From assembly GCA_036444275.1 (NCBI GenBank), contig JAZGAD010000010.1, positions 5,068 to 69,067 on the forward strand: a DNA stretch of 64,000 bases, in the 5' to 3' direction. The notes below the pieces were generated by a model. It made no database searches, was not told where the DNA came from, and worked only from the letters and a program-made list of their open reading frames with translations. This document shows positions 9,192 to 53,540 of this stretch, piece by piece. This stretch comes from Candidatus Hydrothermarchaeales archaeon. Its GTDB lineage: Archaea; Hydrothermarchaeota; Hydrothermarchaeia; Hydrothermarchaeales; JAZGAD01. The translations under genes and the position numbers were made by a program. Within the stretch, counting starts at the first letter, position 1; the number at the start of each line of letters is the position of its first letter.

Positions 9192-9309
9192 GGTCTTTTT
9201 CTATTATTTCATCACAGTTTTAACGAAATTGAGGGTAGTGAAGATAATTCCTATAAGAATAAAATGCATCCCAGATTATTTCATTTCTTTCCGCATCTAA
9301 AGTTGCGTG

Positions 9310-10461: not shown

Positions 10462-10853
10462 AAGATGCGTCTCAACTCCACCAATAACGGGAGGAAATGC
10501 CCAGTGAATAACCCCAACTTTTAATTTTATATTTTCTCAGCTCCAACGTTAGAGTACGTCACCGATTATTATGTTTATGACCTATATTATACCTTGGTAG
10601 GATGGGCTTCTCATATTTGGGGTGAAGGAGGCGTTGAGGAGCCTTGACATCAGAAGGAGCTACAAAGTCCTAAGGCACTGGATCCAGCGTCTTGGGGTCC
10701 TGCGCTAAAGGCTATTTCGAAAAGGGCGAGGCCAGCATAGCAGTGGCGAACGAGACCAAGTCAAGATAGACTGGAGGTGGTCAAAATCTAAAGTTGACAC
10801 CACCGAGATGATACCGAAAAGTTATATCTAAGGCCGCCTAGAGTCTAGAGTAT

Positions 10854-18628: not shown

Positions 18629-19087
18629 TTAATGGTTGATTATCTTCAAAGCCTCTTCTTTAAATTCGTCAAAGTCGTTAAGGTGGTTTTCTAGGACATC
18701 AAAGACCTTTTCATCTTCTATGACTTCATAATGATGAACCAAGATATTTCTCATCCTCTTCATACTTTTAAGATTAGCAACCGTTTTTTCTGAGAGGTCT
18801 TTGGATAATTTATCTACTGCACTTTCGTCTCCGGCAGGAAGGCCCAGCTTCTTCATCTTAACCAGCAGGTATACAACGTCCGTAACTATTTCAATTAAGA
18901 GGTGCAGCAACCTCTCGCATACCCTCTTTGTCTGGAGGCTTGACTTGTATTCCTCAAGACTTTTCGGTATTATGGACCTTAACTCCTCCAGGTAAGTGTC
19001 AAGGAGGTCCAGCTTGGTGAGAATCCTGTCCCTATCCAAGGGCCACACTCTCCAGATAAGCTCTGTATCTCGGGTAATAGTCCTCAA
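18629..19087 (-). CDS. HepT-like toxin (DUF86, HEPN domain)
   Basis: An R-x4-H-x-Y HEPN motif (RNILVHHY). It overlaps the upstream MNT gene, and the true start is probably a non-ATG codon inside the overlap. Confidence 0.75.
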   Translation of the reverse strand: MRTITRDTELIWRVWPLDRDRILTKLDLLDTYLEELRSIIPKSLEEYKSSLQTKRVCERLLHLLIEIVTDVVYLLVKMKKLGLPAGDESAVDKLSKDLSEKTVANLKSMKRMRNILVHHYEVIEDEKVFDVLENHLNDFDEFKEEALKIINH

Positions 19088-19514
19088 AATACCTTGAAGT
19101 TTTGATGCTTATGTCGTAGAGGGCATCTTCATCTTTGCAAAGGAGAACCTTCCCCTCTTTTAAAACCCGGATCTGTATGTAGAGAGGGAGCTCTTGATAT
19201 GTGTGGATGTCCAGGTCGAACTTTCCTATGTACTCAAGACCTTTTTTTGCCAAGTTCACCGTTTCTTCTCTGGATGGAGCAACGACCAGACAGACATCTA
19301 TATCCCTGGAGGCCTCATCCCTTACATAGCTGCCGAAGAGGATGACAGCTAGGATATCCTTGTCTTTCTTCGCTTTTTTGGTGAGCTTTTGAATTTGGTC
19401 TTTTATTGGTGGCATGATTGAAATTTTGCTTTGGTAGCACTTAAAAGTTGGGTTAGATGATGAGGGATGCGTATGGAATGGCCAATTACTGCGGGCTTGG
19501 GAAAGCTTTCCCAA
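19032..19514 (-). CDS. MNT-type nucleotidyltransferase antitoxin (cognate of HepT)
   Basis: GSYVRDEASRDIDVCLVV fits the minimal nucleotidyltransferase motif GSxxRGxxxxxSDIDL. The likely true start is the internal Met at ~19415 (MPPIKDQIQ). Confidence 0.75.
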   Translation of the reverse strand: MGKLSQARSNWPFHTHPSSSNPTFKCYQSKISIMPPIKDQIQKLTKKAKKDKDILAVILFGSYVRDEASRDIDVCLVVAPSREETVNLAKKGLEYIGKFDLDIHTYQELPLYIQIRVLKEGKVLLCKDEDALYDISIKTSRYFEDYYPRYRAYLESVALG

Positions 19515-19564
19515 TTTCTTTACTCATAGTAAAACTTCTTTACTTTATGTAGGCGGAAGACAAG

Positions 19565-19795
19565 ATGATTGCCAAGTCAGGGAAGATAAGTTCAAAGGGA
19601 CAGATTACTCTTCCGAAGGTGTTTAGGGAGCAATATCACCTAAAAGAGGGAAAAGAAGCACTGATGGTGCCAACGAAGGAGGGCATCCTGATAAAACACA
19701 AGAGGGAGTCTTTGAGGGGGATTCTTGTAGGAAAGATTGATACGGAAGGGTTCATTAGAGACCTCAAGAAGCTCCGGGAAGAATGGGAGCTATGA
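19565..19795 (+). CDS. AbrB/MazE-type (SpoVT/AbrB fold) DNA-binding protein
   Basis: The N-terminal KISSKGQITLPKVFRE matches the swapped-hairpin AbrB motif. The 76 aa product is a possible orphan antitoxin or regulator. Confidence 0.5.
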   Translation: MIAKSGKISSKGQITLPKVFREQYHLKEGKEALMVPTKEGILIKHKRESLRGILVGKIDTEGFIRDLKKLREEWEL

Positions 19796-19868
19796 GCTAT
19801 GTGGTGGATACAGTTAACTCTAACTTTCTATACACATGCCTAAATATAATAAAAGCAGGTTATAATGC

Positions 19869-20732
19869 ATGCAGATCGGAGTCGACATCGGTGGGACGAA
19901 TATTGAAGCCGCCCTCGTAGAAAGGGGTAAAGTTACTAAAAAAGCAAAGCGCAACACCGAAGCGGATAAAGGCAGAAAAGTAGTCCTCAAAAACATCGTT
20001 GACGTGATAGCCGAGGTTTTTACCACAAGCGTAGAGGCGATAGGCGTAGGCATAGCCGGGCCATTCGATCAAAAGAAGTTCGTTATGCTTCAGTCGCCCC
20101 ACATTCCCTGCCTTGTCAATTTCCCTATTAAGGATTTTCTGGAGGAGACGTTCAAGGTCAAGGTCGCTGTCGGCAATGACGCGAGGATGTTCACTCTAGG
20201 CGTATACGAGTTTGAATATAAAGACGTCAAGGATCTCGTAGGTCTAACGCTGGGTACCGGCGTTGGCGGCACTGCGATAATAGATGGAAAGATGGAGGAG
20301 AATCCAAGGGATACCAGTGGGGAGATAGGGCATATCGTTATCAAAAAAAATGGGAGGCGGTGTGGTTGCGGTGCGAGGGGTTGCATAGAGGCTTATGTTT
20401 CGGGCAGTGCAATTGAAAGGCGGTATAAGGCATTAAGCGGCAAGTCTTTGGACGCGGAGGCGATAGCCGATAATGCAGTGAAAGGCGATAAGACAGCAAA
20501 GTGGGTTATAGAGGAGGCCGGAATTCAGCTTGTAAAGGGACTTACAAAGATTGTCGAGAAATACAGGCCAATGGTTATTGTCATCGGTGGAAGTGTGGCG
20601 AACACTGAGGATATTTTAGAAATTGCAAAAAAGGAGTTCAGGAAATTAATGCCAGATGCAAAGGTGAAGGTTGAAAAGTCTAGGCTAAAGGATGCTTCTT
20701 TGCTTGGTGCAGCGAAGTTTGCTGAAGGCTAA
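19869..20732 (+). CDS. ROK family sugar kinase (glucokinase-like)
   Basis: N-terminal IGVDIGGTNIEAALV and the ROK zinc motif CGCGARGCIEAYVSG. Confidence 0.8.
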   Translation: MQIGVDIGGTNIEAALVERGKVTKKAKRNTEADKGRKVVLKNIVDVIAEVFTTSVEAIGVGIAGPFDQKKFVMLQSPHIPCLVNFPIKDFLEETFKVKVAVGNDARMFTLGVYEFEYKDVKDLVGLTLGTGVGGTAIIDGKMEENPRDTSGEIGHIVIKKNGRRCGCGARGCIEAYVSGSAIERRYKALSGKSLDAEAIADNAVKGDKTAKWVIEEAGIQLVKGLTKIVEKYRPMVIVIGGSVANTEDILEIAKKEFRKLMPDAKVKVEKSRLKDASLLGAAKFAEG

Positions 20733-20787
20733 TTATGTATTCTACGCACCCGGCGCTAAATACTTCAGCGTTATTACATCATTTGCT

Positions 20788-21831
20788 CTAAAATTCCTTC
20801 CTGTGTGGTTCAACGATTACCTTGAGGGATTCCTTTGCATCGGCGACGAGTTGAAATCCCAAGCCGGTTTCTTCCAAGTTTAATCGATGCGTAATCATGT
20901 CGTGCACATTCACATCTCTCGCGCTGATCATTTCTAGAGCTTTTGCTAGATCTTGAGGGCTAGCCCCATATGAAGTCATTAATGTAACCTCGTTGCGCCA
21001 AAGTTCATTTACAGGCACAGGCAGGTCAACCCCTGGCTTTGTCGGTGCGAAGAATATAACAGTACCTCCGCGATCCACAGATTGCAAAGCCTGGGCGAAG
21101 GTGTTAGTTGCTCCAGTGCAGACGATTACACGATCAGCAAGTGTGTTTTCATTGACTTGGCGCAAGCGGGTAGGCACATCCTCCTCTGCATGTATAACGA
21201 CATCTGCTCCAAATCGCCGTGCCGCATTCAAACGATACTCATTGATGTCCGTGGCAATTACTCTCTCTGCTCCCTTTACTCTGGCCAATTGCACATGAAG
21301 CAGTCCGGAGATGCCACTGCCTAAGACGAGTACACTATGGCCCTTCTTTACATTCCCTAGTCTTTGCCCCCGAAGTACGCAGGCCAGAGGCTCGATAAAC
21401 GTACCATCTTCATAAGATACCTCGTCGGGTAACAGATACACACCCCTCTCCACGTTTATTCTCGGGACACGAATGTATTCTGCGAAGCCACCTGGATCGA
21501 AGTTCGTTTTGTGTAAGGTTTCACATGCAGTATGGTGCCCGCTCAAACAGTAGCGGCATTCGTTGCAAGGTACGTGGTGGGAAACGAAAACCCTATCACC
21601 TGTTTTATAACGCTTCACGCCATCGCCGACCTCAACTATTTCGCCTGTTACCTCGTGGCCTAGTACAAGGGGCGCCTTTTTGACCCGGTACCACTCCATA
21701 ACGTCGCTGCCGCAGATGCCACTCGCCATGACCTTAAGTAATATCTCTCCAGGATTGATCTTGGGCGTTGACATCTCCTCCAGGCGCACATCTTGGTTAT
21801 TGTAATACATTGCTACGCGCATGATGCCCAA
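20788..21831 (-). CDS. zinc-dependent medium-chain alcohol dehydrogenase (threonine/sorbitol dehydrogenase-like)
   Basis: GICGSDV catalytic zinc motif, a structural-zinc CxxC pair, and the GSGISGL NAD-binding site. Confidence 0.8.
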   Translation of the reverse strand: MGIMRVAMYYNNQDVRLEEMSTPKINPGEILLKVMASGICGSDVMEWYRVKKAPLVLGHEVTGEIVEVGDGVKRYKTGDRVFVSHHVPCNECRYCLSGHHTACETLHKTNFDPGGFAEYIRVPRINVERGVYLLPDEVSYEDGTFIEPLACVLRGQRLGNVKKGHSVLVLGSGISGLLHVQLARVKGAERVIATDINEYRLNAARRFGADVVIHAEEDVPTRLRQVNENTLADRVIVCTGATNTFAQALQSVDRGGTVIFFAPTKPGVDLPVPVNELWRNEVTLMTSYGASPQDLAKALEMISARDVNVHDMITHRLNLEETGLGFQLVADAKESLKVIVEPHRKEF

Positions 21832-41694: not shown

Positions 41695-42712
41695 ATGGAT
41701 ACGGCTGGGAGGATAACCGTCAGCTTCCCATATAATCCTTCCTACATTACAAAGATAAAAAGCATAAAAGGTCACAGGTGGCATCCTGAAGAAAAATACT
41801 GGCGTGTGCCATACTCTGAGCTTGAAAACCTCTTATCTGTCTTTGATGGCGAGAAGGCTGATATCGACTCCGCTCTCTATTTCGAGCCCCTGAGAAAAGA
41901 GCTTGCATCGAGGAAGTACAGCCGGAGAACGATGAAGATGTATCTGCAGTACAATGAGGATTTCTTGAGGTTTGCAAGGAAAACTCCTTACAAGATTTCC
42001 AATAGCGACGTGAGGGATTATCTGTATCACTTGGCGGAGGAGAGGGATGCATCTGCCTCTACCCTGAATATTGCTATAAATGCGTTGAAGTTCTACTATG
42101 GTGAGATCTTAAAGCGGGGGTTTGCTTATGGGATTAAGAGGCCTAAGAAGGATAAGAAAATGCCCGTTGTATTAAGTCCGGAGGAAGTTTCCAAGATTTT
42201 ATCTTCACTTTCAAACATCAAGCATAAAGCCATTCTTATGCTTATGTATTCTGCTGGATTAAGAGTTGGTGAAGTTGTGAAGTTGAGGGTTGAGGATATA
42301 GATACTGGAAGAAAGTTAATTCATATCCGTGGTGGGAAAGGAAGGAAAGATCGCTATACTATACTTTCAGATGTTGCATTGGAGACCCTCAAAGTATATA
42401 TCAACGCCTGCAATCCAGAAAATTGGCTTTTTCCTGGGGGGAAAGGATAGAGGGCATGTTACCACAAGAACTGTGCAAAGGATATTTGAAGATGCCGTCA
42501 GAGAGGTCGGTGTTGGCAAAGACGTTAGCGTTCATTCTTTGAGACATAGCTTTGCAACACATCTATTAGAAAGCGGCGTAGATTTGAGGTATATTCAGGA
42601 ATTGTTAGGGCACAAAAGCAGTAAAACGACAGAGATATACACTCATGTGAGCAACAAGTCTTGGAGCAGAATAAAAAGCCCTCTGGATCTAATTCAAAGA
42701 GGTGGGACATGA
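41695..42712 (+). mobile_element. tyrosine recombinase/integrase (XerC/D superfamily) gene split by a +1 frameshift in a G/A homopolymer
   Basis: ORF 41695..42450 carries an N-terminal extension, the core-binding domain and the catalytic start ([24 protein letters not shown]). ORF 42329..42712 in the +1 frame carries [39 protein letters not shown] (R-H-R-Y catalytic residues). The frames switch at cctgggggg-aaagga (~42433-42447). Confidence 0.75.
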
Positions 42713-42857
42713 GGGAGTTTGGTAGCATCCGGGATGGGTATATGCGCAATGCAGATATAATTCTAAATAGGGATGATATACGCAATGCGTATATGAACGA
42801 GTTAGGCGAAATTTTTAAATCGCCTTTATAAGAACTTAAAAAAGGAATGTGAAATAG

Positions 42858-44258
42858 TTGAATATGAAAGCTTTAATACTTGCCGCTGGAGACGGTGGCA
42901 GATTGGGCAACTTAACTAAAAATAAACCCAAGCCCCTGATTAAACTTTTGGGATTAACTTTGATCGAAAGAGTAATATTAACTGCAAAACAAGCAGGCAT
43001 TAAAGAATTCGTGATAGTTTTTGGTTATCTGGGTGACAAAATAAAAGCAAAATTGGGAACTGGAGATAGGTATGGAGTAGAAATAAACTATATCGAAAAT
43101 AATGACTGCCAAAAAGAAAATGGGATCTCTGTATTAAAGGCCAAAGGATTGTTAAATGAAAACTTCATCCTGTTAATGTCAGACCATATCTTTGATAATC
43201 GTATTCTGAAAGAACTTATCGATTATGATACAAAAAGTTCAGTTGTTTTAGCTATTGATAGAAGAAAATCTCTACCAGGAGACACAAAGGTTCTGGAGAA
43301 GGAAGGAAGAATTGTTGATATCGGTAAAAATATAGAAGAATCAAACTGCATAGATACGGGTATCTTCTTGTGCTCACCAAAAATATTTTCTCATATTGAA
43401 GAAGCAGTAAAAGAAGGTAAAACTGAGCTTGCACATGATATTGCTAAAGCTGTTAAGAACAGAGATGCAGAAATATTCGACATCACGCAAATTAACAGCT
43501 ATATCCCGAGCATGCGGAAGGAGATTAAAGCTTTCTGGATAGATATTGATACAAAGGAGGATTTAATCAAAGCAAAAAAGCTTTTAATTGAGAATGCCTG
43601 TAAAGGACGAAATGACCTGCTTGCAACCTATGTGAATAAGCCAATAGAAAATTTTATTGTAAGCAGATTGGCGAACACGCAGATTACACCAAACCAGGTT
43701 ACTATACTAACAAACATAGTTGCTTATACATCCACATTTTTATTTCTCGAAGGATATCTATTGTTTGCTTCCATTCTCACCTTTATCGTTTCATTTATGG
43801 ACGGTGTGGACGGAAAACTTTCAAGAGTGAAAATAGCCTTTTCAAATATTGGGAAAATGGAGTACGCCTTCGATTTTCTTTATGAGCATTCATGGTATAT
43901 CGCCTTAGCCATCTATCTATCAAAGGACTATGGACTATCAGCGATTTTACTGTGCACATTCATACTCCTGTTTGATGGTTTTTCTCATTTTTGCAGACAG
44001 GCGTTTGGGAAGGCAATAAAGGACCGCCCATTAACAGATTATGGACGAATTGAACGGCTATTCAGAAAATTTGATGGTAGGAAGAACAGTTATATAATTT
44101 TTATCTTAATAGGTGTTTTGCTAAATGCACCTTTCTGGTCATTAGTTGCAATATCTGTATGGTCATTGGTCAGTGCTATATTTTATTCTTCAAGGGCGAT
44201 TTTGCATTTATATCGAGCCGATAAATCAACTCAGGGACCATATGGGAGCAAAAGATGA
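42858..44258 (+). CDS. bifunctional CTP:inositol-1-phosphate cytidylyltransferase / CDP-inositol:inositol-1-phosphate transferase (IPCT/DIPPS)
   Basis: N-terminal nucleotidyltransferase (MKALILAAGDGGRLGNLTKNKPKPL) fused to a C-terminal membrane CDP-alcohol phosphatidyltransferase domain (DGVDGKLSR ... multiple TM helices). This architecture makes di-myo-inositol phosphate in hyperthermophiles. Confidence 0.75.
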   Translation: MNMKALILAAGDGGRLGNLTKNKPKPLIKLLGLTLIERVILTAKQAGIKEFVIVFGYLGDKIKAKLGTGDRYGVEINYIENNDCQKENGISVLKAKGLLNENFILLMSDHIFDNRILKELIDYDTKSSVVLAIDRRKSLPGDTKVLEKEGRIVDIGKNIEESNCIDTGIFLCSPKIFSHIEEAVKEGKTELAHDIAKAVKNRDAEIFDITQINSYIPSMRKEIKAFWIDIDTKEDLIKAKKLLIENACKGRNDLLATYVNKPIENFIVSRLANTQITPNQVTILTNIVAYTSTFLFLEGYLLFASILTFIVSFMDGVDGKLSRVKIAFSNIGKMEYAFDFLYEHSWYIALAIYLSKDYGLSAILLCTFILLFDGFSHFCRQAFGKAIKDRPLTDYGRIERLFRKFDGRKNSYIIFILIGVLLNAPFWSLVAISVWSLVSAIFYSSRAILHLYRADKSTQGPYGSKR

Positions 44259-44335
44259 AGATAAGAATGATGTGGCTTGGGAAGGTCGTCAACGGACCTT
44301 CCATCCACCTGAAATTAGTAGGGAGGGCTTGAACA

Positions 44336-45460
44336 ATGAAGATCGCTTACGTATCAACCTATCTCCCCAAACAGTGTGGGATAGCCACCTACACGGATTA
44401 TCTCATTCACGGTCTCAGAGAGGTGGATCCGGCATTGGAGATTAAGATCATTGCCGAACAAGGAGCATCTCCTATCAAACAAGATAAACTTGAAGTGATC
44501 CCCTCCTGGGATAGAAACGAGGATTATGTAGAACCTATCATCTCACGCACAAAGGGTGCAGATGTAATCCACATTCAGCACGAATACGGCATATACAAAT
44601 TTGATGATAGATTACCATTATTACTCCAGGGATTGGACCCAGATGCCCGGAAGGTGATAACCATCCATTGCGTGAGACCAGCTCAGTTCTCCGAAAGAGA
44701 TGCTGTAGATGAGAATTTTGCAGCAAAAATCGCTCAACTTGCCGATCAGGTCATCGTACACCTTGAGTCGCAAAAAGCAATCCTGACACGACTTGGAATA
44801 CCATCAGGAAAGATTCACATTATTCCCCATGGAACAGTGCTTAGTGATGAGGATAAAGAGGCTTCACGGAAGAGGCTCGGACTGCCCAAGGACGCAAAGA
44901 TACTTCTCATGTTCGGGTTTGTCAAGAAACACAAGTGTTTACACATCGTTCTTGAGGCCCTCGTTGAGATATTGGAGAAATTCAAAGATATATATCTATT
45001 TGTGGCCGGAGGTCTTGCTCCAATAGCCTCACAGAAGGACAGGGACTATGCAGAATATGTGGGCAAGAGGATAGCGGAACTGGGGCTTCAGAAGAACGTC
45101 ATCTACCCAAACAGGTTCTTTCCCAACGAAGATGTGCCATATCTGTTGGGGGCATCTGACATTATCCTGTTTCCTTACTATGAGGAGGACCGCTCTGCCT
45201 CGGGCTCATTTCACCTGGCCATTGGTGCGAAAAAACCAGTTATTGCTTCGAGGATACCCAAGTTTGAAGAACTGAGAAATATCTGCGATGAACTTCTTGT
45301 CCTTCCGTATAACTCTTCGGGAATTGCAAAAGTAGTCATTCGTCTTTTTGAAGACTCAAAATTTCGGCAGTATGTAGTCAATCGCACCGAAGAATACAGA
45401 AATCTTACCTCCTGGCAAACCGTAGCGCACCAACACTTGAAATTGTATAAGGGAGTTTGA
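44336..45460 (+). CDS. glycosyltransferase family 4-like (GT-B)
   Basis: A GT4-like N-terminal domain (MKIAYVSTY...) and a C-terminal nucleotide-sugar-binding domain, 374 aa. Confidence 0.7.
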   Translation: MKIAYVSTYLPKQCGIATYTDYLIHGLREVDPALEIKIIAEQGASPIKQDKLEVIPSWDRNEDYVEPIISRTKGADVIHIQHEYGIYKFDDRLPLLLQGLDPDARKVITIHCVRPAQFSERDAVDENFAAKIAQLADQVIVHLESQKAILTRLGIPSGKIHIIPHGTVLSDEDKEASRKRLGLPKDAKILLMFGFVKKHKCLHIVLEALVEILEKFKDIYLFVAGGLAPIASQKDRDYAEYVGKRIAELGLQKNVIYPNRFFPNEDVPYLLGASDIILFPYYEEDRSASGSFHLAIGAKKPVIASRIPKFEELRNICDELLVLPYNSSGIAKVVIRLFEDSKFRQYVVNRTEEYRNLTSWQTVAHQHLKLYKGV

Positions 45461-45461
45461 G

Positions 45462-46502
45462 ATGAAGATAGGAATGATGACCGCTTGGAACCAAGATGTA
45501 GGACCTTCTATTCATGCCGAGCTGATCGGCAGAGAATGGGTGAAGATGGGTCATGAGCTTAGAATTTTTTCCTTCCTTAAGTCAGATTTTCATGGCACAG
45601 CCATTGTTGGTCAGGATGAGGAGTATGTGCTCCGATGTTTTACTACATCTACGGCAGAAAGACCATTTTTGGATGCTCGTCCCTTCGTAGAATTCCATCC
45701 CGATATTTTCATTACCCAAGATCTTGGGACGTTGCCAATGGATGCTCTCGCAAAGATTTTCCACCTTATAAAAAAAGAAGCAAAGACGATAACCGTGATC
45801 CACGATCGAATGCTTTCATCAAATCCATCTTTTTATCAATTTGAATGGGATGCGATTATTTGTAGCGATAAAAGGTACGTAGAATTTCTTAAAGAGGCTT
45901 ATCCAGAGGAAAAAATCTATGTAATACCCCATCCATACAATAAGTGGAGAGCCGGGGATAAGATTCGGGCAAGAAAGAAATTAGATCTGCCACTCGATAA
46001 GAAGATTATCCTGAACTTTGGTCAAAGAGTAAAGGATTTCAAAGAAACACTTCCTGCGATTTCCGAACTTCAGTCCAACTATCCGATTCTTGTTTTGGTA
46101 GTTACCAGAGAAGAAATAGAAGAACTCAGAAGAGAAACAACTTTACCAATTGAGATAAGGGAAGAGAGCCCATGTATAGAAAGGGTTTATGAGTATTTAC
46201 ACGCATCAGATGCCATGGTACTTCACCGTAAATCTATTGAGGGGATTGTCTATTCAAGCACCACTTATCAGTGCTTAGGATCAGGTTGTTCCGTCGTTGC
46301 GCTAAACTCAAACTTCTTCCAGCCATTTGGTGTGGAAGTCTTAAAATATGATGACTTAGCGGGCTTAAAGGAGTGCCTAATCGATATATTTAAAGAAGGA
46401 AAAAGATATAAAACAGCAAAATTATTAGCGGAAAGGGTGGTAAAAAGAAATACTCCACAAGAGATAGCAACTAAATTCATTAAACTTTTTGAATCGCTGT
46501 GA
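45462..46502 (+). CDS. GT-B fold glycosyltransferase-like protein (paralog 1 of 2)
   Basis: It starts 2 nt after the upstream GT4. It shares extended similarity with ORF 47259..48302 (MKIGMMTAWNQDVG.. vs MRIAMMSAWNTDSG..; EEYVLRCF vs EEYVVRCF). Confidence 0.5.
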   Translation: MKIGMMTAWNQDVGPSIHAELIGREWVKMGHELRIFSFLKSDFHGTAIVGQDEEYVLRCFTTSTAERPFLDARPFVEFHPDIFITQDLGTLPMDALAKIFHLIKKEAKTITVIHDRMLSSNPSFYQFEWDAIICSDKRYVEFLKEAYPEEKIYVIPHPYNKWRAGDKIRARKKLDLPLDKKIILNFGQRVKDFKETLPAISELQSNYPILVLVVTREEIEELRRETTLPIEIREESPCIERVYEYLHASDAMVLHRKSIEGIVYSSTTYQCLGSGCSVVALNSNFFQPFGVEVLKYDDLAGLKECLIDIFKEGKRYKTAKLLAERVVKRNTPQEIATKFIKLFESL

Positions 46503-46630
46503 TGGGTAAAATGAAATCTAAAACTTTTGTTGGTAGAGAGAATAAATTAAAGCTACTGGAACACTATTTTGAAGAAACCATCAAAAACAAAAAAAGGCAT
46601 TGTTATTTTGCTTACATGAGGAAATAGGTA

Positions 46631-46975
46631 TTGGCAAACAGACGCTTAACACCCTGGGGCAGCTGGCAGGTTCTTGCTGAAGGCCGAGAATATAAGGTAA
46701 AACTGATTAAAGTGAAGCCAGGGCACCGCTTTAGCCTCCAGTTGCATAATCGTAGAGATGAGCACTGGATGGTTGTTTCAGGTCAAGCAAGAGTAGAGAT
46801 TGGAGACAAAACAGTTAAAGCTAAACCCGGAAAATACATATTCATTCCTAAAAAGACGAAGCACCGGCTGCAAAATCCGGGAAAGAGTCGTCTCGTGGTA
46901 ATTGAGGTTCAAAGGGGTAAATATCTAGAAGAGGACGATATTGTTCGCCAAGAAGATAATTATGGAAGGTCATGA
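46631..46975 (+). CDS. cupin-domain protein (mannose-6-phosphate isomerase type II / ManC C-terminal-like)
   Basis: Cupin motifs G-x5-H-x-H (HNRRDEHW) ... KHRLQNPG in a 114 aa product. Confidence 0.6.
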   Translation: MANRRLTPWGSWQVLAEGREYKVKLIKVKPGHRFSLQLHNRRDEHWMVVSGQARVEIGDKTVKAKPGKYIFIPKKTKHRLQNPGKSRLVVIEVQRGKYLEEDDIVRQEDNYGRS

Positions 46976-47121
46976 AACTTAATTCAGAGATTTTTAGAGA
47001 GCACGATATAAGGGGAGTGGTTGATAAGGACTTGGATCCGGAGGTGGTGGAAGAAATTGGTAGGGCCTTTGGGGCTTATATTGGGAAGGGTAAGGTGGCG
47101 GTAGGACAGAGGGGATATTGA
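46972..47121 (+). pseudogene. phosphomannomutase/phosphoglucomutase N-terminal fragment (49 codons)
   Basis: MKLNSEIFREHDIRGVVDKDLDPEVVEEIGRAFGAYIGKGKVAVGQRGY* matches the N-terminus of PMM/PGM (IFRxYDIRG ... VxVGxD) but stops before the phosphoserine loop. The ATG overlaps the cupin stop (ATGA). Coordinates +/-2. Confidence 0.5.
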
Positions 47122-47258
47122 GATAATGAGCAAAGATTTAAAACTTAGCAACTAGAGTTAGAAGAGATTAATGATATCTTCATCGAAAGGCTTAAGAAGT
47201 ATCCTCAAATGGACATTAAGCCGTTTAGAGGATAATTATTTTGGAAGGAGGCTAGAGG

Positions 47259-48302
47259 ATGAGAATTGCTATGATGAGTGCTTGGAACACAGATAGTGGA
47301 GTAGCTGTACATGCAGAACCATTGGGCAAAGCCTGGATAAAGATGGGACATAAGTTAACTGTATTTACTTTCATCAAGGATGACTTCCATGGGGAGGGGT
47401 TTACCGGCGAAGATGAGGAGTATGTAGTCAGATGTTTTGGCACTCAAGAGCATACCAACTTCTTAGACCCCCGGCCTATCCTCACCACGGACTTTGATAT
47501 CTTCGTAGTTCAGGATTTAAGGATACTTCCAGTAGAAAAATTAGCCAAAGTATTTAGCCTGATTAAACAGCGGGCCATGACAATACATATAGTTCATGAA
47601 AATAAATTACCTGATGATGCCTGGTTTTATCAATTTGACTGGGACAAGGTAGTCTATTTTGATCAGAGGCAGGAATTCCTAAAAGAGATATACCCTGACG
47701 CTAAACTTATCCCTTTTCCTTGTTATGAACTAAGAAGGCGTGATAAGCTTGAGGCAAAAAAGAGGTTAGAGCTCCCCCTGGATAAGAAAATCATCTACTC
47801 TTTTGGCCAACGCGGCTATCATTCCTATCTTCGAAACTTACCTGATGAGATTAAAGATAAGGCAGTGCTTCTACATGTTGTCTCCAAAGAATACCAGATG
47901 CTTGAAGAGGAATCTCCTCCCGATTGGATGATTATTAGAAGAGAGGATGTTTTATCCCGCGAGAAATTTAATGACTATCTCTTTGCCTCGGATGCGGCTA
48001 TTTTTCATAAGTTCCAGAGCCGTTATCATGCCGTTGTTTCCTCTACGGTCTTTCAGGCATTAGGTTGTGGTTGCCCAATCTTAGTTCCCCGGCAATCGGA
48101 TTTCTTTCATCCTATGCAGAATGAGGTCATACGTTATGGAGATACTCCCGACTTAAATAGGAAGCTGCTTGAATTATTTGGAGATGAACAGACATCTCAA
48201 ACAGTCCAAGACGCAGCAGAAGGGTTTGTGTCAATGAATTCACCAGAAAAAATTGCCAAAAGGTATATCGGGCTATTTACTGAGGTCTTAAGAGCAAGAT
48301 AA
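47259..48302 (+). CDS. GT-B fold glycosyltransferase-like protein (paralog 2 of 2)
   Basis: Paralog of 45462..46502 with the same length and conserved blocks throughout. Confidence 0.5.
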   Translation: MRIAMMSAWNTDSGVAVHAEPLGKAWIKMGHKLTVFTFIKDDFHGEGFTGEDEEYVVRCFGTQEHTNFLDPRPILTTDFDIFVVQDLRILPVEKLAKVFSLIKQRAMTIHIVHENKLPDDAWFYQFDWDKVVYFDQRQEFLKEIYPDAKLIPFPCYELRRRDKLEAKKRLELPLDKKIIYSFGQRGYHSYLRNLPDEIKDKAVLLHVVSKEYQMLEEESPPDWMIIRREDVLSREKFNDYLFASDAAIFHKFQSRYHAVVSSTVFQALGCGCPILVPRQSDFFHPMQNEVIRYGDTPDLNRKLLELFGDEQTSQTVQDAAEGFVSMNSPEKIAKRYIGLFTEVLRAR

Positions 48303-48337
48303 GATGTGCAAGAAAAATTTTATCATCGAGCCATTTT

Positions 48338-48610
48338 GTGGATTATCCAAACAACCCAATTTTAGCTCCGGCAAAAGGTTTCACCTCACAAGGAATATAT
48401 AACCCTACAGTGATTAAAGAAGGAAAAAAATTCTTTATGCTATTCAGGGCTGAGGCAGAAGATGAGTTGACGGGAAGGATAGGGCTTGCTAAAAGTAGTG
48501 ATGGCATCCAATTTAGCTTGCACCCCGAACCAGTAATAGTGCCTTCTGCGGATTTCGATAAGTTCGGCTGTGAAGACCCCCGGGTGGTGAGATTTAAAGA
48601 TACTAAGTAA
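48338..48610 (+). pseudogene. GH130-family N-terminal fragment (90 aa)
   Basis: NPILAP...GIYNPTVIKEGKKFFMLFRAE...GRIGLAKSSDGIQFS...GCEDPRVV matches the first blade(s) of GH130 phosphorylases and then terminates. Confidence 0.45.
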
Positions 48611-48613
48611 AAT

Positions 48614-48864
48614 GTGGGAAGAATCAAGATTGCTATTATAGGAGTAGGCAACTGCGCCAGTTCTCTGGTGCAAGGTTTATGGTTCTATAAAGATTCATCA
48701 GAAGAAAAAGTTATCGGCTTAATGCACTACGATGTTGGTGGGTACAAGGTATGGGATTTGAGGTAGCGGCTGCCTTTGATATCGATAAGCGAAAGGTTGG
48801 CAAGCCCTTGAATGAGGCGATATTTGCCAGGCCGAACTGCAGGAGAATTTATAAAATTATTTAA
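48614..48864 (+). pseudogene. myo-inositol-1-phosphate synthase N-terminal fragment with a frameshift
   Basis: A GTG start gives [49 protein letters not shown]. Continuing in the -1 frame gives [25 protein letters not shown].... Both blocks match the Rossmann N-terminus of MIPS ([13 protein letters not shown] ... AAFDVD.KKVG ... AIFA). Coordinates +/-3. Confidence 0.55.
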
Positions 48865-48888
48865 CAAGTTGTTATAAGGGGTAATGTA

Positions 48889-50058
48889 ATGAACACTTTG
48901 GAAGAATTAGGAGATGGCAAGGTTATCGAAATCGAATCAGGAGCGACCATTTTTAAACTGGAGTCCGATGAAAAAAACCCTATTGTCAGACCCCAAGACC
49001 TCGGGCTCACCTGGAATGAGAATGGCGAATCGAAGATTGGGGCAGTTTTCAACGGTGGGGCTGAATTTTTCGAGAATAAGGTTATTCTTTTGCCAAGGTG
49101 TCATAGAGATTACCGAAAGGGCGAATTCTTTGACGAAAAGTTAGGCATTGAGAGGACCTGCCTGGAAAACTACATTTCCGAGGTTTGGCCTTTGGTGAGC
49201 GAGGATGGCGTCCACTTCACCAGATTCCATAACGTGGTAATCCGGGGCGATGGCACCGACCATCAGGACTTTACCTACGGAATAGAGGACATCCGAATCG
49301 TTAAGTACGGCCGGAGATACCTGCTGATCGGGTGTGGGAAGATAAAACCTCCGTTTAAAGGCGGCAATGCGGATCGAATTGCCATTTACACAACCAAAGA
49401 TTTTGTGAAGATTAACTATCAGGGCATAGTGGACTCCTTTGACTCGCGCAATGCGGTTCCCTTCTCCGAGCCGGTAAATGGACAACACTGGATACTCCTG
49501 CGTTTTCATACTAATATTCACATAGATTTTCTTGAAGCCGGCATAAATCAATTGCTGAATCCTTCCCAGCACACAGAACAGTGGGATGAAATCTATGAGC
49601 GACAGAGCCAGAATCTCCTTTTAGAAGCTGGGCACTACCCGCACGAAAAGCAGAAAATCGGCCCGGGCCCCCAGGTGCTCAGAACCGATAGGGGTTGGTT
49701 GCTCATCTACCATGCTGTTGGTGAGATAGAATATAATATCTGCAAAGCCTACGGGTTGACGGAAAAAATTGAAAGAGGATACTCCATCTGCGCTGCCCTT
49801 TTGGACTTAGACGATCCACGAAAGGTGCTTTGTCGAACCAGAAATCCAATCTATATTCCTTCAACCCCTTACGAATTATATGGTAACGATCAATATCCAG
49901 TGGATGTGTCTGCAGTCGTTTTTCCCATGGGTGCTATTGTTCGAAAAGAAAAACTGATTCTCTATGCCGGAGCTGGCGATAAATACATCATCCTTTTGAG
50001 CTGCGATCTTGATAACTTAGTTAATTATTTATGGGAGTATTGCAAGTACATTGCATAG
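48889..50058 (+). CDS. GH130-like glycoside phosphorylase/hydrolase family protein (5-bladed propeller)
   Basis: GIEDIRIV (GxEDPR-like) and YHAVG blocks. The family assignment is tentative. Confidence 0.45.
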   Translation: MNTLEELGDGKVIEIESGATIFKLESDEKNPIVRPQDLGLTWNENGESKIGAVFNGGAEFFENKVILLPRCHRDYRKGEFFDEKLGIERTCLENYISEVWPLVSEDGVHFTRFHNVVIRGDGTDHQDFTYGIEDIRIVKYGRRYLLIGCGKIKPPFKGGNADRIAIYTTKDFVKINYQGIVDSFDSRNAVPFSEPVNGQHWILLRFHTNIHIDFLEAGINQLLNPSQHTEQWDEIYERQSQNLLLEAGHYPHEKQKIGPGPQVLRTDRGWLLIYHAVGEIEYNICKAYGLTEKIERGYSICAALLDLDDPRKVLCRTRNPIYIPSTPYELYGNDQYPVDVSAVVFPMGAIVRKEKLILYAGAGDKYIILLSCDLDNLVNYLWEYCKYIA

Positions 50059-50082
50059 GAACTACCATTGACTTGGCACATC

Positions 50083-50152
50083 GCCTAACAACGGCTAAAA
50101 GGCTCCGCCCAAATTTGCTCCGCTAACTTCTTTTATCCGCAATACGTTAGGT
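50083..50152 (+). repeat. attC-like imperfect inverted repeat, site A
   Basis: R'' is GCCTAAC (RYYYAAC). L'' is CGGCTAAAAG and L' is CTTTTATCCG, with 10/11 complementarity. R' is GTTAGGT (GTTRRRY). It lies 49 nt upstream of the MNT start. Coordinates +/-2. Confidence 0.55.
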
Positions 50153-50200
50153 GAAATGCCTAAGCCCGCTTTGATGGTAAAATTAAAATAAGAATATGTC

Positions 50201-50521
50201 ATGGGTGACTGTATGAAAGGCAAAAACACTCTTACAGAAATAATGGACATCTTTAAAAAATATGAAAAGGAACTGAACAGAAGGTACGGGATCAAAAAGA
50301 TTGGGATATTTGGCTCGTACCTAAGAAGCGAAGCTGGAGAGGAGAGCGATCTAGATATACTTGTAGAATTTGAACAAGACGTAGATATAGGGCTTTTAAA
50401 ATTTGTAGAGATAGAGAACTATCTGAGTGACCTTCTTGGTGTTAAAGTGGATTTGGTGGAAAAATCTGCATTAAAACCGAGGATAGGACGGCGTATATTG
50501 AAAGAGGTTGTTTACGCATGA
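50201..50521 (+). CDS. MNT-type nucleotidyltransferase antitoxin
   Basis: [23 protein letters not shown]. Confidence 0.8.
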
Positions 50522-50862
50522 AGAGAGAGGTTGGAGACTATATTCAAGATGTCATCGACGCTACGAATAAAGGCATGAGATTTGTTGAGGGTGTGGAATA
50601 TGAAGATTTCATTCATGATGATAAAACCGTATTTGCTGTGATAAGAGCTATAGAGGTTATTGGTGAAGCAGTCAAAAATATACCTGAAGATGTAAAAATG
50701 GAGTATCCCGAAATTCCCTGGAGAGATATTGCCGGAATGAGAGATAAGCTTATTCATGCTTATTTTGGAGTTAGCATCAAAAGAGTATGGAAAGCTATAA
50801 AAGAAGAAATTCCTCCATTAAAACCTGTATTTGAAAAAATGCTTAAGGACTTAGAAAAATGA
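50518..50862 (+). CDS. HepT-like toxin (DUF86, HEPN)
   Basis: R-x4-H-x-Y motif RDKLIHAYF, with a 4-nt overlap with the upstream MNT gene. Confidence 0.8.
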
Positions 50863-50938
50863 GGTCTATAATATTCGGTAGGCTTGGGTACTCTGCGGAT
50901 TTGCATTGCAAATCCTTGCCCTCGCTATCGCTCGGGTC

Positions 50939-51089
50939 GCCTAACAGGCGGGTATGCGGTTCGAAATGATGAAAAGTGGTCTCACCCAGATTCCTTTGAC
51001 AACGGTTATATTCAGCTTTCACATTGCTCTCACCTGATGAAATCGGGATGCTCGCAGTCGGCACTTCGCATACCCGCGAAACGTTAGAC
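50939..51089 (+). repeat. attC-like imperfect inverted repeat, site B
   Basis: R'' is GCCTAAC. L'' is GGCGGGTATGCG and L' is CGCATACCCGC, perfectly complementary over 11 nt. R' is GTTAGAC. The spacers are asymmetric (AG versus GAAAC), as in integron attC sites. A perfect 9-bp-stem palindrome, ggatttgca-t-tgcaaatcc, lies just upstream at ~50896-50914. Confidence 0.55.
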
Positions 51090-51133
51090 GCAATAAATTT
51101 CAATAGTTTGATTTTATATGGAGATATACAATC

Positions 51134-51568
51134 ATGAAAAAGTTTCGAGATGTCGATGAGATAAAAGTAAAATTAGAAGAAGTGAATGCCTTATTTGAAA
51201 AAGGTGATCTTGCATGTTTTTTGTATCTATCAAGTTATATTGAAGATCGCCTGAAACGTAATCTAATGGTTCATTGTTTGTCAGAAGACAGATATTCTAA
51301 AGAGATTGAACATTATATTTTCAACTTAAATCTCTATAATTTAATTGAAATATCCAACTTATTCGGATTAATTACTAAAGAAACTTATACGGATTTGGAA
51401 ATTTATAGAAAGTTTAGAAATGAATTGTTTCATGATGCAATTTTCAATGAAGCAATTGATAGAGAGTATGAGAAATATTATTCATTAGGTTGTAAAATAA
51501 TATGTGAACTTCATGACACGGGTGTCGAAATATGCGACGCAATAACCAAAAAAGTAGACATTTCCTAA
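51134..51568 (+). CDS. HEPN-like domain protein (hypothetical)
   Basis: R-x4-H motif in YRKFRNELFHDAIF, a 144 aa product, and AT-rich codon usage. Confidence 0.4.
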   Translation: MKKFRDVDEIKVKLEEVNALFEKGDLACFLYLSSYIEDRLKRNLMVHCLSEDRYSKEIEHYIFNLNLYNLIEISNLFGLITKETYTDLEIYRKFRNELFHDAIFNEAIDREYEKYYSLGCKIICELHDTGVEICDAITKKVDIS

Positions 51569-51578
51569 AATTTACATC

Positions 51579-51662
51579 GCCTAACAGAGCGTATCTGGTT
51601 CGCTATCGCTCACCTAAATCTCTCCCGTTGCCTGAACTTCAGATACGCTCGGAACGTTATAT
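51579..51662 (+). repeat. attC-like imperfect inverted repeat, site C
   Basis: R'' is GCCTAAC. L'' is GAGCGTATCTG and L' is CAGATACGCTC, perfectly complementary over 11 nt. R' is GTTATAT (degenerate). The spacers are asymmetric (AG versus GGAAC). Confidence 0.5.
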
Positions 51663-51718
51663 GCAATTTCAAAGAAGTTACTATTCCCCAATTTGAGTTA
51701 TTAAAGGAGGTCTAACTT

Positions 51719-52630
51719 ATGTCAATGAAGTCTAAAAGAAAAGACCCCACACCTAAACAGAAAGAAAAATTGCTCTCTATGAATGCGGGAGTTTGCTGTG
51801 TATGCAAAACAAGAGGGCAAGGTGTTAATTTTCATCATATTGACGGTGACAATACCAACACTGTCATTGAAAACTTAGCTGTTCTTTGCATCAAGGATCA
51901 TGATGCATATCATAGACCTCAGGTTTATACAGAGATGAAACATTTAGAGCTTGGAGCTGAAAAGATATTAAAATGCAAGCTTGAATGGGAATCATTTATA
52001 AAAGCAGCACAAAAAGAAAGTCCCAAAGTGCTAGCTGTAATAAATATTTACGGGACTGAAGAAAGCATACATTCTATGAGATTAATTTTCCAGACAATTG
52101 AATCAAAAATAATTTTTGAACGACTATATCATCTACTTACAGGATCACCTAAAAGTTGGATAGATTCTGCAATTGATGAAGTTCGCTGGCTTGGATCAAA
52201 TATTCCACTTTCAATAGTAGATAAACCACTTCCAATTGAATATTGCCCTTGCTGTGATAAATCTTTAGCGAATGTAATTGATAGTAATGTTGCAAAGAGG
52301 ATAACGGCAAGCAATTGGGAACAAAATTCTATCTGTTCTATTTATATCAATCCTTCACAACCTTCTTTGGCAATTATACTATTGTATGAAAAAGAAGTTC
52401 TTCTTACCGGATCACTTCATAAATGTGGTGAATGCCTACATTTCATTTGTGATAATTTCGAGGAAAGAGTTCCAATTAAAAAATCGCCCAGCGTGAGAAC
52501 TCAGGCAACTAGAATTTTATCTAAAGTTTTAAGTGAGTGGCACCCAGCCCAAATACTTATTGGAACAGGAGATGAAGATAATCCTGAGATCATTGACAAT
52601 TTGAACCTATCACGAATATGGGAGAATTAA
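51719..52630 (+). CDS. HNH endonuclease domain protein
   Basis: The N-terminal block CCVCK...FHHIDGDNTNTVIENLAVLCIKDHDAYH fits the HNH consensus (CxxC ... HH ... N ... N ... CxxH). The C-terminal region has further Cys pairs (CPCCD, CGEC). Confidence 0.6.
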   Translation: MSMKSKRKDPTPKQKEKLLSMNAGVCCVCKTRGQGVNFHHIDGDNTNTVIENLAVLCIKDHDAYHRPQVYTEMKHLELGAEKILKCKLEWESFIKAAQKESPKVLAVINIYGTEESIHSMRLIFQTIESKIIFERLYHLLTGSPKSWIDSAIDEVRWLGSNIPLSIVDKPLPIEYCPCCDKSLANVIDSNVAKRITASNWEQNSICSIYINPSQPSLAIILLYEKEVLLTGSLHKCGECLHFICDNFEERVPIKKSPSVRTQATRILSKVLSEWHPAQILIGTGDEDNPEIIDNLNLSRIWEN

Positions 52631-52668
52631 GATTATTACTCAAATAACTCAAATTATGATGAAACGGC

Positions 52669-52731
52669 GTATAACAGAGCATACCTGGCTTCGTGCCTTC
52701 GGCGGACTTCAGATACACGCAACCGTTAAGT
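52669..52731 (+). repeat. attC-like imperfect inverted repeat, site D (degenerate)
   Basis: R''-like GTATAAC. The right arm TTCAGATACACGC-AACC-GTTAAGT is homologous to the right arm of site C. The L''/L' pairing is weaker (7/11). Confidence 0.4.
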
Positions 52732-52772
52732 GAAAAAGCCCAAAGTTTATTGAATTAAAATGAGGCAAATCC

Positions 52773-53297
52773 GTGAAAGATAATAAACTTCAACAGCTCA
52801 AAGTTGTAATCTCCCTTCTTGAGAAGTATAATAAAATCGAAGAAAAATTAAAAGAGCTCAAAATCGTTCGAACGAGAAAGGTTATCTCAGAAGTTGGCGA
52901 GTGGTATGTCTCTATTCTTTTTAATTGTAAAATAAATACTAACCCGTCTGAAAAAGGATTCGATTGTATTGACCCTGAGACTGGGAAGAAGATTGAAATA
53001 AAGACTATCAGAAAATCAGAAAGTAATCCTATTGGCTATAGGTTATCTAAGGATAAAGTCGAGCGGCAAATTTTTGATGAACTTATTATTTTGAGGTTGG
53101 GAGATAATTTTCGGATAAGACAATTGTTTAAGTTGGATAGAGATGATATTTCGGAGGAGAATTTTTCCCTTCTTAGCAGTGCGAAATATAATTTGAGTTG
53201 GAATTCCTTAAAAAAGGGAAACTTCGAAGTTACTCATGAAAATGCTTTACAAAGAGGGTTAGATGATATAGAAGTATTTAGAATGCTAATGGAATAA
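52773..53297 (+). CDS. hypothetical protein, possible PD-(D/E)xK nuclease fold
   Basis: FDCIDPETGKKIEIKT fits a D ... (D/E)xK arrangement. The 174 aa product has no other recognisable motif. Confidence 0.3.
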   Translation: MKDNKLQQLKVVISLLEKYNKIEEKLKELKIVRTRKVISEVGEWYVSILFNCKINTNPSEKGFDCIDPETGKKIEIKTIRKSESNPIGYRLSKDKVERQIFDELIILRLGDNFRIRQLFKLDRDDISEENFSLLSSAKYNLSWNSLKKGNFEVTHENALQRGLDDIEVFRMLME

Positions 53298-53310
53298 TAT
53301 GGGCTTCTTC

Positions 53311-53386
53311 GCCTAACAGTGTGTTTGCGAAGTGCCGAAGGCATTTGGGTGAGCATGATGCACCGCAAACACACGAACCATTACGC
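53311..53386 (+). repeat. attC-like imperfect inverted repeat, site E
   Basis: R'' is GCCTAAC. L'' is GTGTGTTTGCG and L' is CGCAAACACAC, perfectly complementary over 11 nt. R' is degenerate (ATTACGC). Confidence 0.45.
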
Positions 53387-53540
53387 GACATTGCGAAATA
53401 TAAGAATTTGCGTCTTTTAGATATTCAAAATGGAAATTTCAGGCGCAGTTATTCTTGAATACCAAAAGTGACCTAGTGAATTTCCTAAATACTTAAATAC
53501 AATCCATAATCCCTTTTTATTATCTGAATGGGGACGAAGT

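Follow-up and report, generated by a model that had tools for sequence, protein, structure and literature searches.

A 64,000-nucleotide stretch of contig JAZGAD010000010.1 (positions 5,068–69,067; GenBank assembly GCA_036444275.1, Candidatus Hydrothermarchaeales archaeon), referred to here as the window, carries a tyrosine-recombinase gene, an attI-like site downstream of it and five co-oriented cassettes that each end in a hairpin-forming site (elements A–E; Table 1). This locus is probably a complete but disabled integron-like platform within a Hydrothermarchaeales chromosome. The hairpin architecture of the sites, the covariation of their stems, the complementarity at cassette junctions and the linkage of recombinase, attI-like site and array across many genomes are observed directly, and the best reading of these sequences is that the locus belongs to a distinct integron-like class present across Bacteria and Archaea. 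More tentatively, since the case is close to balanced but falls somewhat short of it, the class may be a second integron lineage, ancestral to or convergent with the classical one and spreading between Bacteria and Archaea, that is built on Xer-type recombinases without the I2 helix, most of them with a HARP-like, junction-recognising N-terminal domain, and on hairpin sites of a geometry other than that of attC. Unless the run of six G (G6) that interrupts the recombinase gene is an assembly error, the platform has probably become frozen in this archaeon.

The initial annotation, which was made from the letters of the window alone, had proposed an integron-type cassette array from the five elements, and all five were found where it had placed them; it overlooked the recombinase gene, the attI-like site and the fact that element A closes a 7.3-kb first cassette. 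Its impression that integrons are not established in this lineage did not hold, since integrons were reported in 2022 in Archaea (75 metagenome-assembled genomes (MAGs) in nine phyla; Ghaly et al. 2022, PMC9668308), including a Hydrothermarchaeales MAG (GCA_006538205.1) with three attCs, and one Hydrothermarchaeota attC was among those tested in that study.

Hairpin sites of the array

Each tandem cassette of the window ends in an imperfect palindrome of the integron type, from RYYYAAC (R'') to GTTRRRY (R'), with all five sites on the plus strand and one shared layout: R'', 1–2 nt, an 11-nt L'' box, a centre of 22–108 nt, an 11-nt L' box, 4–5 nt and R'. The left spacer, initially given as AG throughout, has that form in element B only and is a single A in A, C, D and E. 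As had been noticed at the outset, the L boxes differ between sites and are complementary within them: when the elements were trimmed and aligned, pairing held in 86% of stem cells, against 18–43% when the partner column was slid by 1–3 columns, and 6 of the 11 L-stem pairs showed compensatory changes on both sides, so that structure rather than sequence is conserved. In the stem of element D 7 of 11 pairs are Watson-Crick, and three of the four mismatches become G.T on the bottom strand, giving 10/11 there. Element E has an A in place of G at the crossover position of its R' (ATTACGC, 53380–53386), and its end looks like a dead terminal site or a remnant of the original junction.

When the bottom strands were folded as single-stranded DNA, a check suggested with the initial annotation, elements A, B, C and E gave an R stem and an L stem with a one-sided bulge of 4 nt between them, and element D gave no such fold by minimum free energy. 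The unequal spacers that had been expected to produce extrahelical bases are present, but the outcome is a one-sided bulge beside R' and not extrahelical bases in the L box. Loop-side motifs flank the L stem in elements A–D (GGYTCG or GRYTTCG directly after L'' and ACTT directly before L'), and the same motifs occur at sites in bacterial relatives from the survey described below (L004 7111–7190, L004 9518–9593 and L037 4747–4827); the 'variable' centre is therefore not wholly free.

Being intergenic, palindromic and repeated, the elements might be taken for generic hairpins, either of the repetitive extragenic palindromic (REP) or miniature inverted-repeat transposable element (MITE) kind or terminators, lying between small genes by chance, but we consider this very improbable. 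A covariance model trained on elements A–E (R2) and run with filters off over the whole 64 kb found no copy besides A–E at E<0.1, and it found none in two adjoining stretches of the same contig (L002 and L003; 41 kb outside the array); over the DNA so covered, copies are confined to the array. In the terminator scan no element was terminator-like and none had a T tract (a sigma-70 promoter scan was uninformative), and Rfam at gathering thresholds returned two tRNAs from the window and no match for the elements. Complementarity from neighbour to neighbour at the junctions, as described next, would also be unexpected for REPs or terminators. The heptamer GCCTAAC alone is not enriched in the window (8 observed, 7.1 expected), hence the signal lies in the architecture and not in the heptamer.

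Crossover signature and attI-like site

With strand exchange at G|TT, the TTRRRY that follows each junction belongs to the downstream cassette, and the pairing of this TTRRRY of each R' with the next R'' is the strongest support for the integron-type recombination that these sequences suggest. For 52 cassettes in relatives of the locus, the four informative bases of the R'' of each cassette were scored for pairing with the R' of the preceding site, with the R' of the same site and at other offsets. Pairing with the upstream R' reached 2.75 of 4, against 1.79 of 4 with the site's own R' and 1.8–2.4 at the other offsets, and the fit was better with the upstream R' for 30 cassettes and with the own R' for 12, while 10 were tied. 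At an Ignavibacteriota locus (L012) seven of eight junctions were perfect, for example GTTAGGC>GCCTAAC, GTTAGCC>GGCTAAC and GTTATGC>GCATAAC.

Across the four element-to-element junctions of the window, scored at the same four positions, the upstream R' was better in two, tied in one and worse in one. Over the full heptamers, the attI core GTTAGGC complements the R'' of element A (GCCTAAC) at 7/7, although this is the commonest pair and the match is thus little informative alone; GTTAGGT of element A fits the R'' of B at 6/7 plus a wobble; GTTAGAC of B fits the R'' of C at 6/7, against 4/7 for C's own R'; and the 'degenerate' GTTATAT of C fits GTATAAC of D at 6/7 plus a wobble, against 4/7 for D's own R'. 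The junction from D to E is uninformative. The junctions fit a crossover at G|TT of R', and from their complementarity the array of the window consists of attI, cassette 1 (42802–50146) and four small cassettes, which supports the gene-then-site cassette layout and the integron-type recombination first proposed for it.

The conserved region after the recombinase gene is read from its sequence as an attI. In the window it runs ...GATATACGCAATGCGTATATGAACGA-GTTAGGC-GAAAT, its core beginning 88 nt past the recombinase stop codon, and crossover would fall at the G|TT within that core (42801/42802). Seventeen relatives share the layout of palindrome, CCAAAATTGG, palindrome and GAACGA-GTTRRRY-GAAAT at 71–131 nt past the integrase stop codon, and the site of the window equals this family consensus at every base. 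The relatives thus agree with the window in having the site beside the integrase gene, with a core that complements the first R'', where a first cassette would be inserted. Of 10 close loci, 9 have an attI 7-mer perfectly complementary to the R'' of the first element, and four different 7-mers are in use among them (GTTAGGC, GTTATAC, GTTGACC and GTTATCT), and further exact pairs were seen at L124 (GTTGTCC>GGACAAC) and on a Chryseobacterium plasmid (GTTGGGA>TCCCAAC). A wider set of 55 loci showed this complementarity between attI core and first R'' in 38 (7.6 expected by chance), mostly at 47–262 nt after the integrase gene.

Table 1. Coordinates and main characteristics of the recombinase gene, attI-like site, cassettes and hairpin elements of the window.
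Feature	Position	Strand	Description
Tyrosine-recombinase gene	41695..42712	+	Frameshifted; ORFs 41695-42450 and 42329-42712; repaired product 338 aa
attI-like site	42736..42812	+	Imperfect palindromes 42736-42760 and 42775-42795; AACGA; core GTTAGGC 42801-42807; GAAAT
Cassette 1	42802..50146	+	7.3 kb, between attI core GTTAGGC and element A; glycosylation genes
Cassette 2	50147..51083	+	MNT antitoxin 50201-50521 (PF01909, 2.7e-19); HepT toxin 50518-50862 (PF01934, 6.4e-28)
Cassette 3	51084..51656	+	144-aa ORF 51134-51568; RNELFH (Rx4H) motif; no family match
Cassette 4	51657..52725	+	303-aa ORF 51719-52630; weak HNH (HNH_3 E 0.0038; ZorE HNH E 0.001)
Cassette 5	52726..53380	+	174-aa DUF6998 protein 52773-53297 (PF22522, 1.5e-7; PADLOC mREase_II, 2.1e-12)
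Element A	50083-50152	+	GCCTAAC-a-ACGGCTAAAAG...CTTTTATCCGC-aatac-GTTAGGT; stem 9/11 paired; R2 58.8 bits
Element B	50939-51089	+	GCCTAAC-ag-GCGGGTATGCG...(108 nt)...CGCATACCCGC-gaaac-GTTAGAC; perfect 11-nt inverted repeat
Element C	51579-51662	+	GCCTAAC-a-GAGCGTATCTG...CAGATACGCTC-ggaac-GTTATAT; perfect 11-nt inverted repeat
Element D	52669-52731	+	GTATAAC-a-GAGCATACCTG...CAGATACACGC-aacc-GTTAAGT; degenerate stem; R2 53.4 bits
Element E (last site)	53311-53386	+	GCCTAAC-a-GTGTGTTTGCG...CGCAAACACAC-gaacc-ATTACGC; perfect 11-nt inverted repeat

The recombinase and its domains

The recombinase gene lies on the same strand as the array, 7.4 kb upstream of the elements, and is interrupted by a +1 frameshift in the G6 run (42436–42441, plus strand). 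Unrepaired, it matches Pfam Phage_integrase only over profile positions 2–99 of 172, together with Phage_int_SAM_4; removal of one G restores the family consensus WLFPGxxxxxHITTRTVQ and yields a protein colinear with 27 homologues. The frameshift may be either a true pseudogene lesion or a homopolymer assembly error. An identical truncated 251-aa open reading frame (ORF) of the recombinase is on record for two contigs.

Judged by its sequence, the recombinase is not an IntI. The repaired protein scored 243.7 bits against NF040815 (XerA_Arch), above the cut-off of 220, and 244 bits against the integron integrase model TIGR02249, where the match was split in two and fell below the cut-off of 265. 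It lacks the additional domain near patch III that characterises IntI proteins: 22 residues stand where VchIntIA (2a3v) has 64, about 42 residues being absent opposite residues 174–238, and this domain is missing throughout the recombinase family. The top structure matches were PDB 4a8e and 5hxy, and no IntI was detected with Pfam among the approximately 60 largest ORFs of the window.

The domain order is a HARP-like N-terminal domain (aa 1–63) followed by a Xer-type core-binding and catalytic domain. AlphaFold2 gave a beta-alpha-beta-beta-alpha fold for the first 63 residues (pLDDT 77.6), and Pfam HARP (PF07443) matched 21 of 23 members of the recombinase family, all below the Pfam cut-off. 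HARP is described as a fork-recognition domain of SMARCAL1 and T4 UvsW (PMC4666394), and the HARP-like domain may stand in for the I2 helix of IntI by recognising the hairpin junction; alternatively, it may bind the attI palindromes. The HARP-like N-terminus is missing in two array-linked relatives, L012 9953–10903 (Ignavibacteriota) and L047 6433–7245 (Patescibacteria), and at the latter locus the three sites are upstream of the gene and on the other strand, as in classical integrons of divergent layout.

Recurrence of the arrangement in other genomes

Thousands of homologues of the recombinase were found, of about 345 aa and many of them on short contigs, and homologues 60–77% identical occur both in Archaea (Thermoplasmatota, 'Euryarchaeota') and in Bacteria (Thermodesulforhabdus, Dehalococcoidia, Thermodesulfobacteriota). 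Because the family is this similar in the two domains, it appears that movement between them involves the whole platform and is not limited to the cassettes. We surveyed 160 relative loci from genomes and metagenomes, 80 of which were of metagenome origin. R2 found copies outside its training set in other genomes (E 1e-7 to 1e-11), and in the 80 metagenome loci all 23 distinct matches lay on the integrase strand, 22 of them downstream of the gene (24 rows were returned at E<=0.1, the last being a minus-strand echo of the palindrome at L089 6873–6967). An architecture scanner (AAC, 1–3 nt, an 11-nt stem with at least 10 pairs, 3–6 nt, G/A-TT) applied to 1.53 Mb gave 17.9 sites per 100 kb downstream on the integrase strand against 3.3–5.3 in the other five strand and position classes, a 3–5-fold enrichment.

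Arrays of up to nine sites were seen in Ignavibacteriota, Flavobacteriia and Gemmatimonadaceae, and further instances of the arrangement are found in Thermodesulforhabdus norvegica, a bacterium in culture, as well as in a Thermoplasmatota MAG and on the Chryseobacterium plasmid. In the relatives one plus-strand ORF fills each cassette, and the accessory cargo is varied. All array-adjoining recombinases lack the IntI insertion, whereas that of a Pseudomonas control has it. The sites on the Chryseobacterium plasmid were not detected by R2 although the architecture scanner detected them, so R2 is narrow. The large Gemmatirosa 'plasmid' integron of the IntegronFinder 2.0 paper was considered as a further carrier and set aside, as it is not among the plasmid matches of the recombinase family.

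The Chryseobacterium plasmid (L164; Chryseobacterium sp. SNU WT5, NZ_CP041688.1) carries a 148-nt repeat in four copies (13138–13285, 15233–15380, 17614–17761 and 20683–20830) with symmetric 3/3 spacers, one copy standing directly after attI like an empty cassette. A group II intron reverse-transcriptase gene lies within this array on the opposite strand (18723–20039) and recalls the group IIC-attC introns of integrons. At the metagenome locus L093 a hairpin site (9810–9904) is present directly upstream of the integrase gene as well as downstream, and the integrase gene there might itself be inside an array, or be mobile.

Model of recombination

Under the model that we propose, a cassette would be excised as a circle carrying one site. 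One strand of a site, probably the bottom strand, would fold into an R stem (RYYYAAC/GTTRRRY) and an L stem of 11 uninterrupted base pairs, separated by a one-sided bulge of 2–4 nt on the R' side. The recombinase would then exchange strands at G|TT, the partner being attI or a second site of the array kind. The presumed catalyst at these sites is the neighbouring recombinase family. We infer that the substrate is folded single-stranded DNA, and the bottom strand in particular, from the covariation of the stems and from an excess of mismatches that become G.T on the bottom strand (27:11, a bias that rests on non-independent copies).

It is conceivable, though distinctly improbable, that the sites instead work as duplex modules of the Xer/dif type, with recombinase dimers acting on double-stranded palindromes and no folded strand. 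The pdif modules of Acinetobacter plasmids are of this kind: small accessory-gene modules, including toxin-antitoxin genes, that are bounded by Xer-type recombinase sites, the sites being 28-bp duplexes of alternating orientation served by the host XerC/D. Those of the present locus, by contrast, are 63–151-nt hairpin-forming palindromes of one orientation beside a dedicated recombinase. The attI palindromes, at roughly 11-6/7-11, do look dif-like, and the Xer-like core has no I2 helix, which PMC7790495 presents as thought necessary for hairpin substrates. However, a half-site read by a protein would be expected to be conserved in sequence, whereas the L boxes vary between sites and are complementary within them; the right spacer is longer than the left by 2–4 nt in 71 of 75 sites, a conserved asymmetry between the arms; variable centres of 22–108 nt would be senseless in a duplex core site; and A.C mismatches are commoner than G.T, which also speaks against the duplex reading.

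Several points weigh against the interpretation of the locus as a complete platform of the folded-strand kind. The recombinase gene is frameshifted here and the platform may be inactive, elements D and E are degenerate, and the limits given above on the 27:11 bias and on the 7/7 match at attI count here as well. Cassette 1, at 7.3 kb, compares with first cassettes of 0.05–2.6 kb in relatives, glycosylation genes are found also 3' of element E, and native genes rather than a cassette could separate the recombinase and attI from the small array.

Comparison with attC sites and known systems

In the aadA7 attC and nine archaeal attCs the order is R''-AAnnn (5 nt)-L'' (8 nt)...L' (7 nt)-5 or 6 nt-R' (PMC9668308). 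Spacers in the present class are 1–3 nt on the left and 4–6 nt on the right, compared with 5 and 5–6 (mostly 6) nt in the published attCs that we used; the L stem is 11 bp without extrahelical bases; and the asymmetry takes the form of a one-sided bulge beside R', where canonical attC has extrahelical bases in the L box. A covariance model of eight published attCs (R1; aadA7 and seven archaeal sequences from Ghaly Data S10), which is a small proxy for the IntegronFinder attC model, recovered 13 attCs in a Pseudomonas chromosomal integron (L081), none of them used in training. In the window, with filters off, this proxy found only the R boxes of element A (11.1 bits, E 2.8), and over 1.6 Mb around relatives of the recombinase it found nothing; R2 in turn gave one weak match only on the Pseudomonas array. 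With little or no cross-detection the two site classes are distinguishable, R1 being a proxy. The initial suggestion that the elements match attC thus stands for their R'' and R' cores and fails for the sites as a whole, in so far as the proxy R1 represents the canonical model.

These comparisons bear on the possibility that the array is no more than the remnant of an ordinary integron (a CALIN, or cluster of attC sites lacking an integron-integrase), whose divergent attCs would be served in trans by a classical IntI elsewhere. The Xer-like gene would then have nothing to do with the array and might be, for instance, a XerA paralogue in decay or an integrase that belongs to a different element. 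We regard this as unlikely, albeit the most credible of the alternatives. The R'' and R' cores are the classical consensus (GCCTAAC, GTTAGGC), the toxin-antitoxin and restriction-type cargo is typical of integrons, and NF040815 places the recombinase as XerA-type. Most reported archaeal integrons are, moreover, CALINs, including one in Hydrothermarchaeales (PMC9668308). A CALIN is defined by at least two attC sites <4 kb apart with no IntI nearby; the largest gap between sites of the window is about 1.1 kb, and the array would qualify if its sites count as attC under the IntegronFinder model. Against it, the proxy model that finds the Pseudomonas integron misses both the sites of the window and every array near the recombinase family, recombinase, attI and array occur together again and again with a fixed strand and relative position, and the window's attI-like site agrees with the family consensus at every base.

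The distinct integron-like class favoured here resembles classical integrons in having an integrase gene beside attI followed by tandem, co-oriented, promoter-poor cassettes, and in having one RYYYAAC...GTTRRRY palindrome per cassette, crossover at G|TT, conservation of structure over sequence and toxin-antitoxin or defence cargo; the co-orientation of the recombinase gene with the cassettes is as in the 'reverse' integrons of Treponema denticola. It differs from classical integrons in its recombinase, which has no I2 helix insertion, scores below the TIGR02249 cut-off and carries the N-terminal HARP-like domain, as well as in the geometry of its L stem.

The archaeal integrons and CALINs of PMC9668308 are alike in that the arrays are usually without a recognised IntI and toxin-antitoxin and restriction genes are prominent, and Hydrothermarchaeales is among the orders in which they occur. 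However, the nine attCs tested in that study, including the Hydrothermarchaeota one, have canonical geometry unlike that of the window sites, and its six IntIs, which have the additional domain, form one archaeal clade, whereas the present family is 60–77% identical across Bacteria and Archaea. Membership of the XerA/dif dimer-resolution system was also considered, since the catalytic and core-binding domains score as XerA-type (NF040815 above its cut-off; 4a8e, 5hxy), and was rejected: the gene is frameshifted, which is unlikely for an essential resolvase, there is an extra N-terminal domain, the family shows high identity across domains with a patchy distribution in both and often lies on short contigs, and what comes after the recombinase gene is always attI with cassettes, not a single dif site of 28 bp.

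Implications for integron evolution and detection

In the prevailing account of integron origin, a Xer-like recombinase gained the I2 helix and thereby became able to recombine folded single-stranded attC (Escudero et al., PMC4792948, PMC7790495). A helix-less recombinase family beside attI and arrays with the G|TT signature could represent an intermediate that still exists, or else a solution reached independently. Such a family could also explain some of the orphan arrays (CALINs) in phyla and archaeal lineages without IntI. In the IntegronFinder papers, where the insertion is the defining feature of IntI, Bacteroidetes are reported to have almost no integrons, and if a second lineage exists, integron finders would miss or mislabel its platforms, being keyed to the IntI insertion and the canonical attC model.

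Archaeal integrons have already been published (PMC9668308), and in the searchable literature, which did not cover subscription journals, we found no description of an insertion-less integrase (often with a HARP-like fusion) paired with bulged hairpin sites without extrahelical bases; a prior description is possible. If the family has already been described, the window would represent one more archaeal example, with its integrase inactivated. The question is directly testable, since carriers are available in culture, namely Thermodesulforhabdus norvegica and, with its plasmid, Chryseobacterium sp. SNU WT5.

Cassette cargo and genomic setting

The gaps from elements A–E to the next ORF are 48, 44, 56, 41 and 154 nt, close to the 42–57 and 155 nt first reported, and the genes of the small cassettes each have their own A/T-rich box and a Shine-Dalgarno-like signal. 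The cargo named in the initial annotation was partly upheld: the MNT/HepT pair is clear, with the MNT antitoxin also matching PADLOC PDC-S09 at 3e-30; the HNH assignment is weak (E 0.004); the 'HEPN' ORF has only an Rx4H motif; and the 'unknown' is a DUF6998 protein with similarity to methyl-directed restriction endonucleases. A second MNT/HEPN toxin-antitoxin pair lies on the same contig just past the end of the window (L003 6375–7074, approximately 64385–65084 in window numbering) and has no adjoining hairpin site.

Pfam matches in cassette 1 comprise an NTP-transferase/CDP-alcohol phosphatidyltransferase, glycosyltransferases of families GT1 and GT4, a mannose-6-P isomerase cupin, a glycosyltransferase-like protein and a GH130 protein. 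Gene fragments at 46972–47121, 48338–48610 and 48614–48766 correspond to part of a phosphoglucomutase/phosphomannomutase (PGM/PMM) gene, part of a GH130 gene immediately before the intact one and a short ORF, which we take to resemble inositol-1-phosphate synthase; together they point to an accessory region that is decaying or of patchwork origin. Within cassette 1 no convincing site was found with the architecture scanner, with R2 at filters off or by reading of the intergenic stretches; a candidate decayed site at 44528–44692 was dismissed as it lies inside a glycosyltransferase gene and is probably due to chance.

Archaeal genes on both flanks of the locus (CetZ, LonB, PheRS alpha and beta, a histone-fold protein and diphthamide synthase) place the array in an archaeal chromosome. 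GC content is 0.34–0.39 over 50–53 kb and 0.35–0.44 over 42–49 kb (0.35–0.47 within cassette 1), and approximately 0.43–0.52 in most of the remaining window. A second low-GC patch at 9001–11000 (0.40–0.42) contains glycosyltransferase genes at 9310–10461 (minus strand) and 10854–12017 (plus strand), and may be another horizontally acquired surface-glycan segment.

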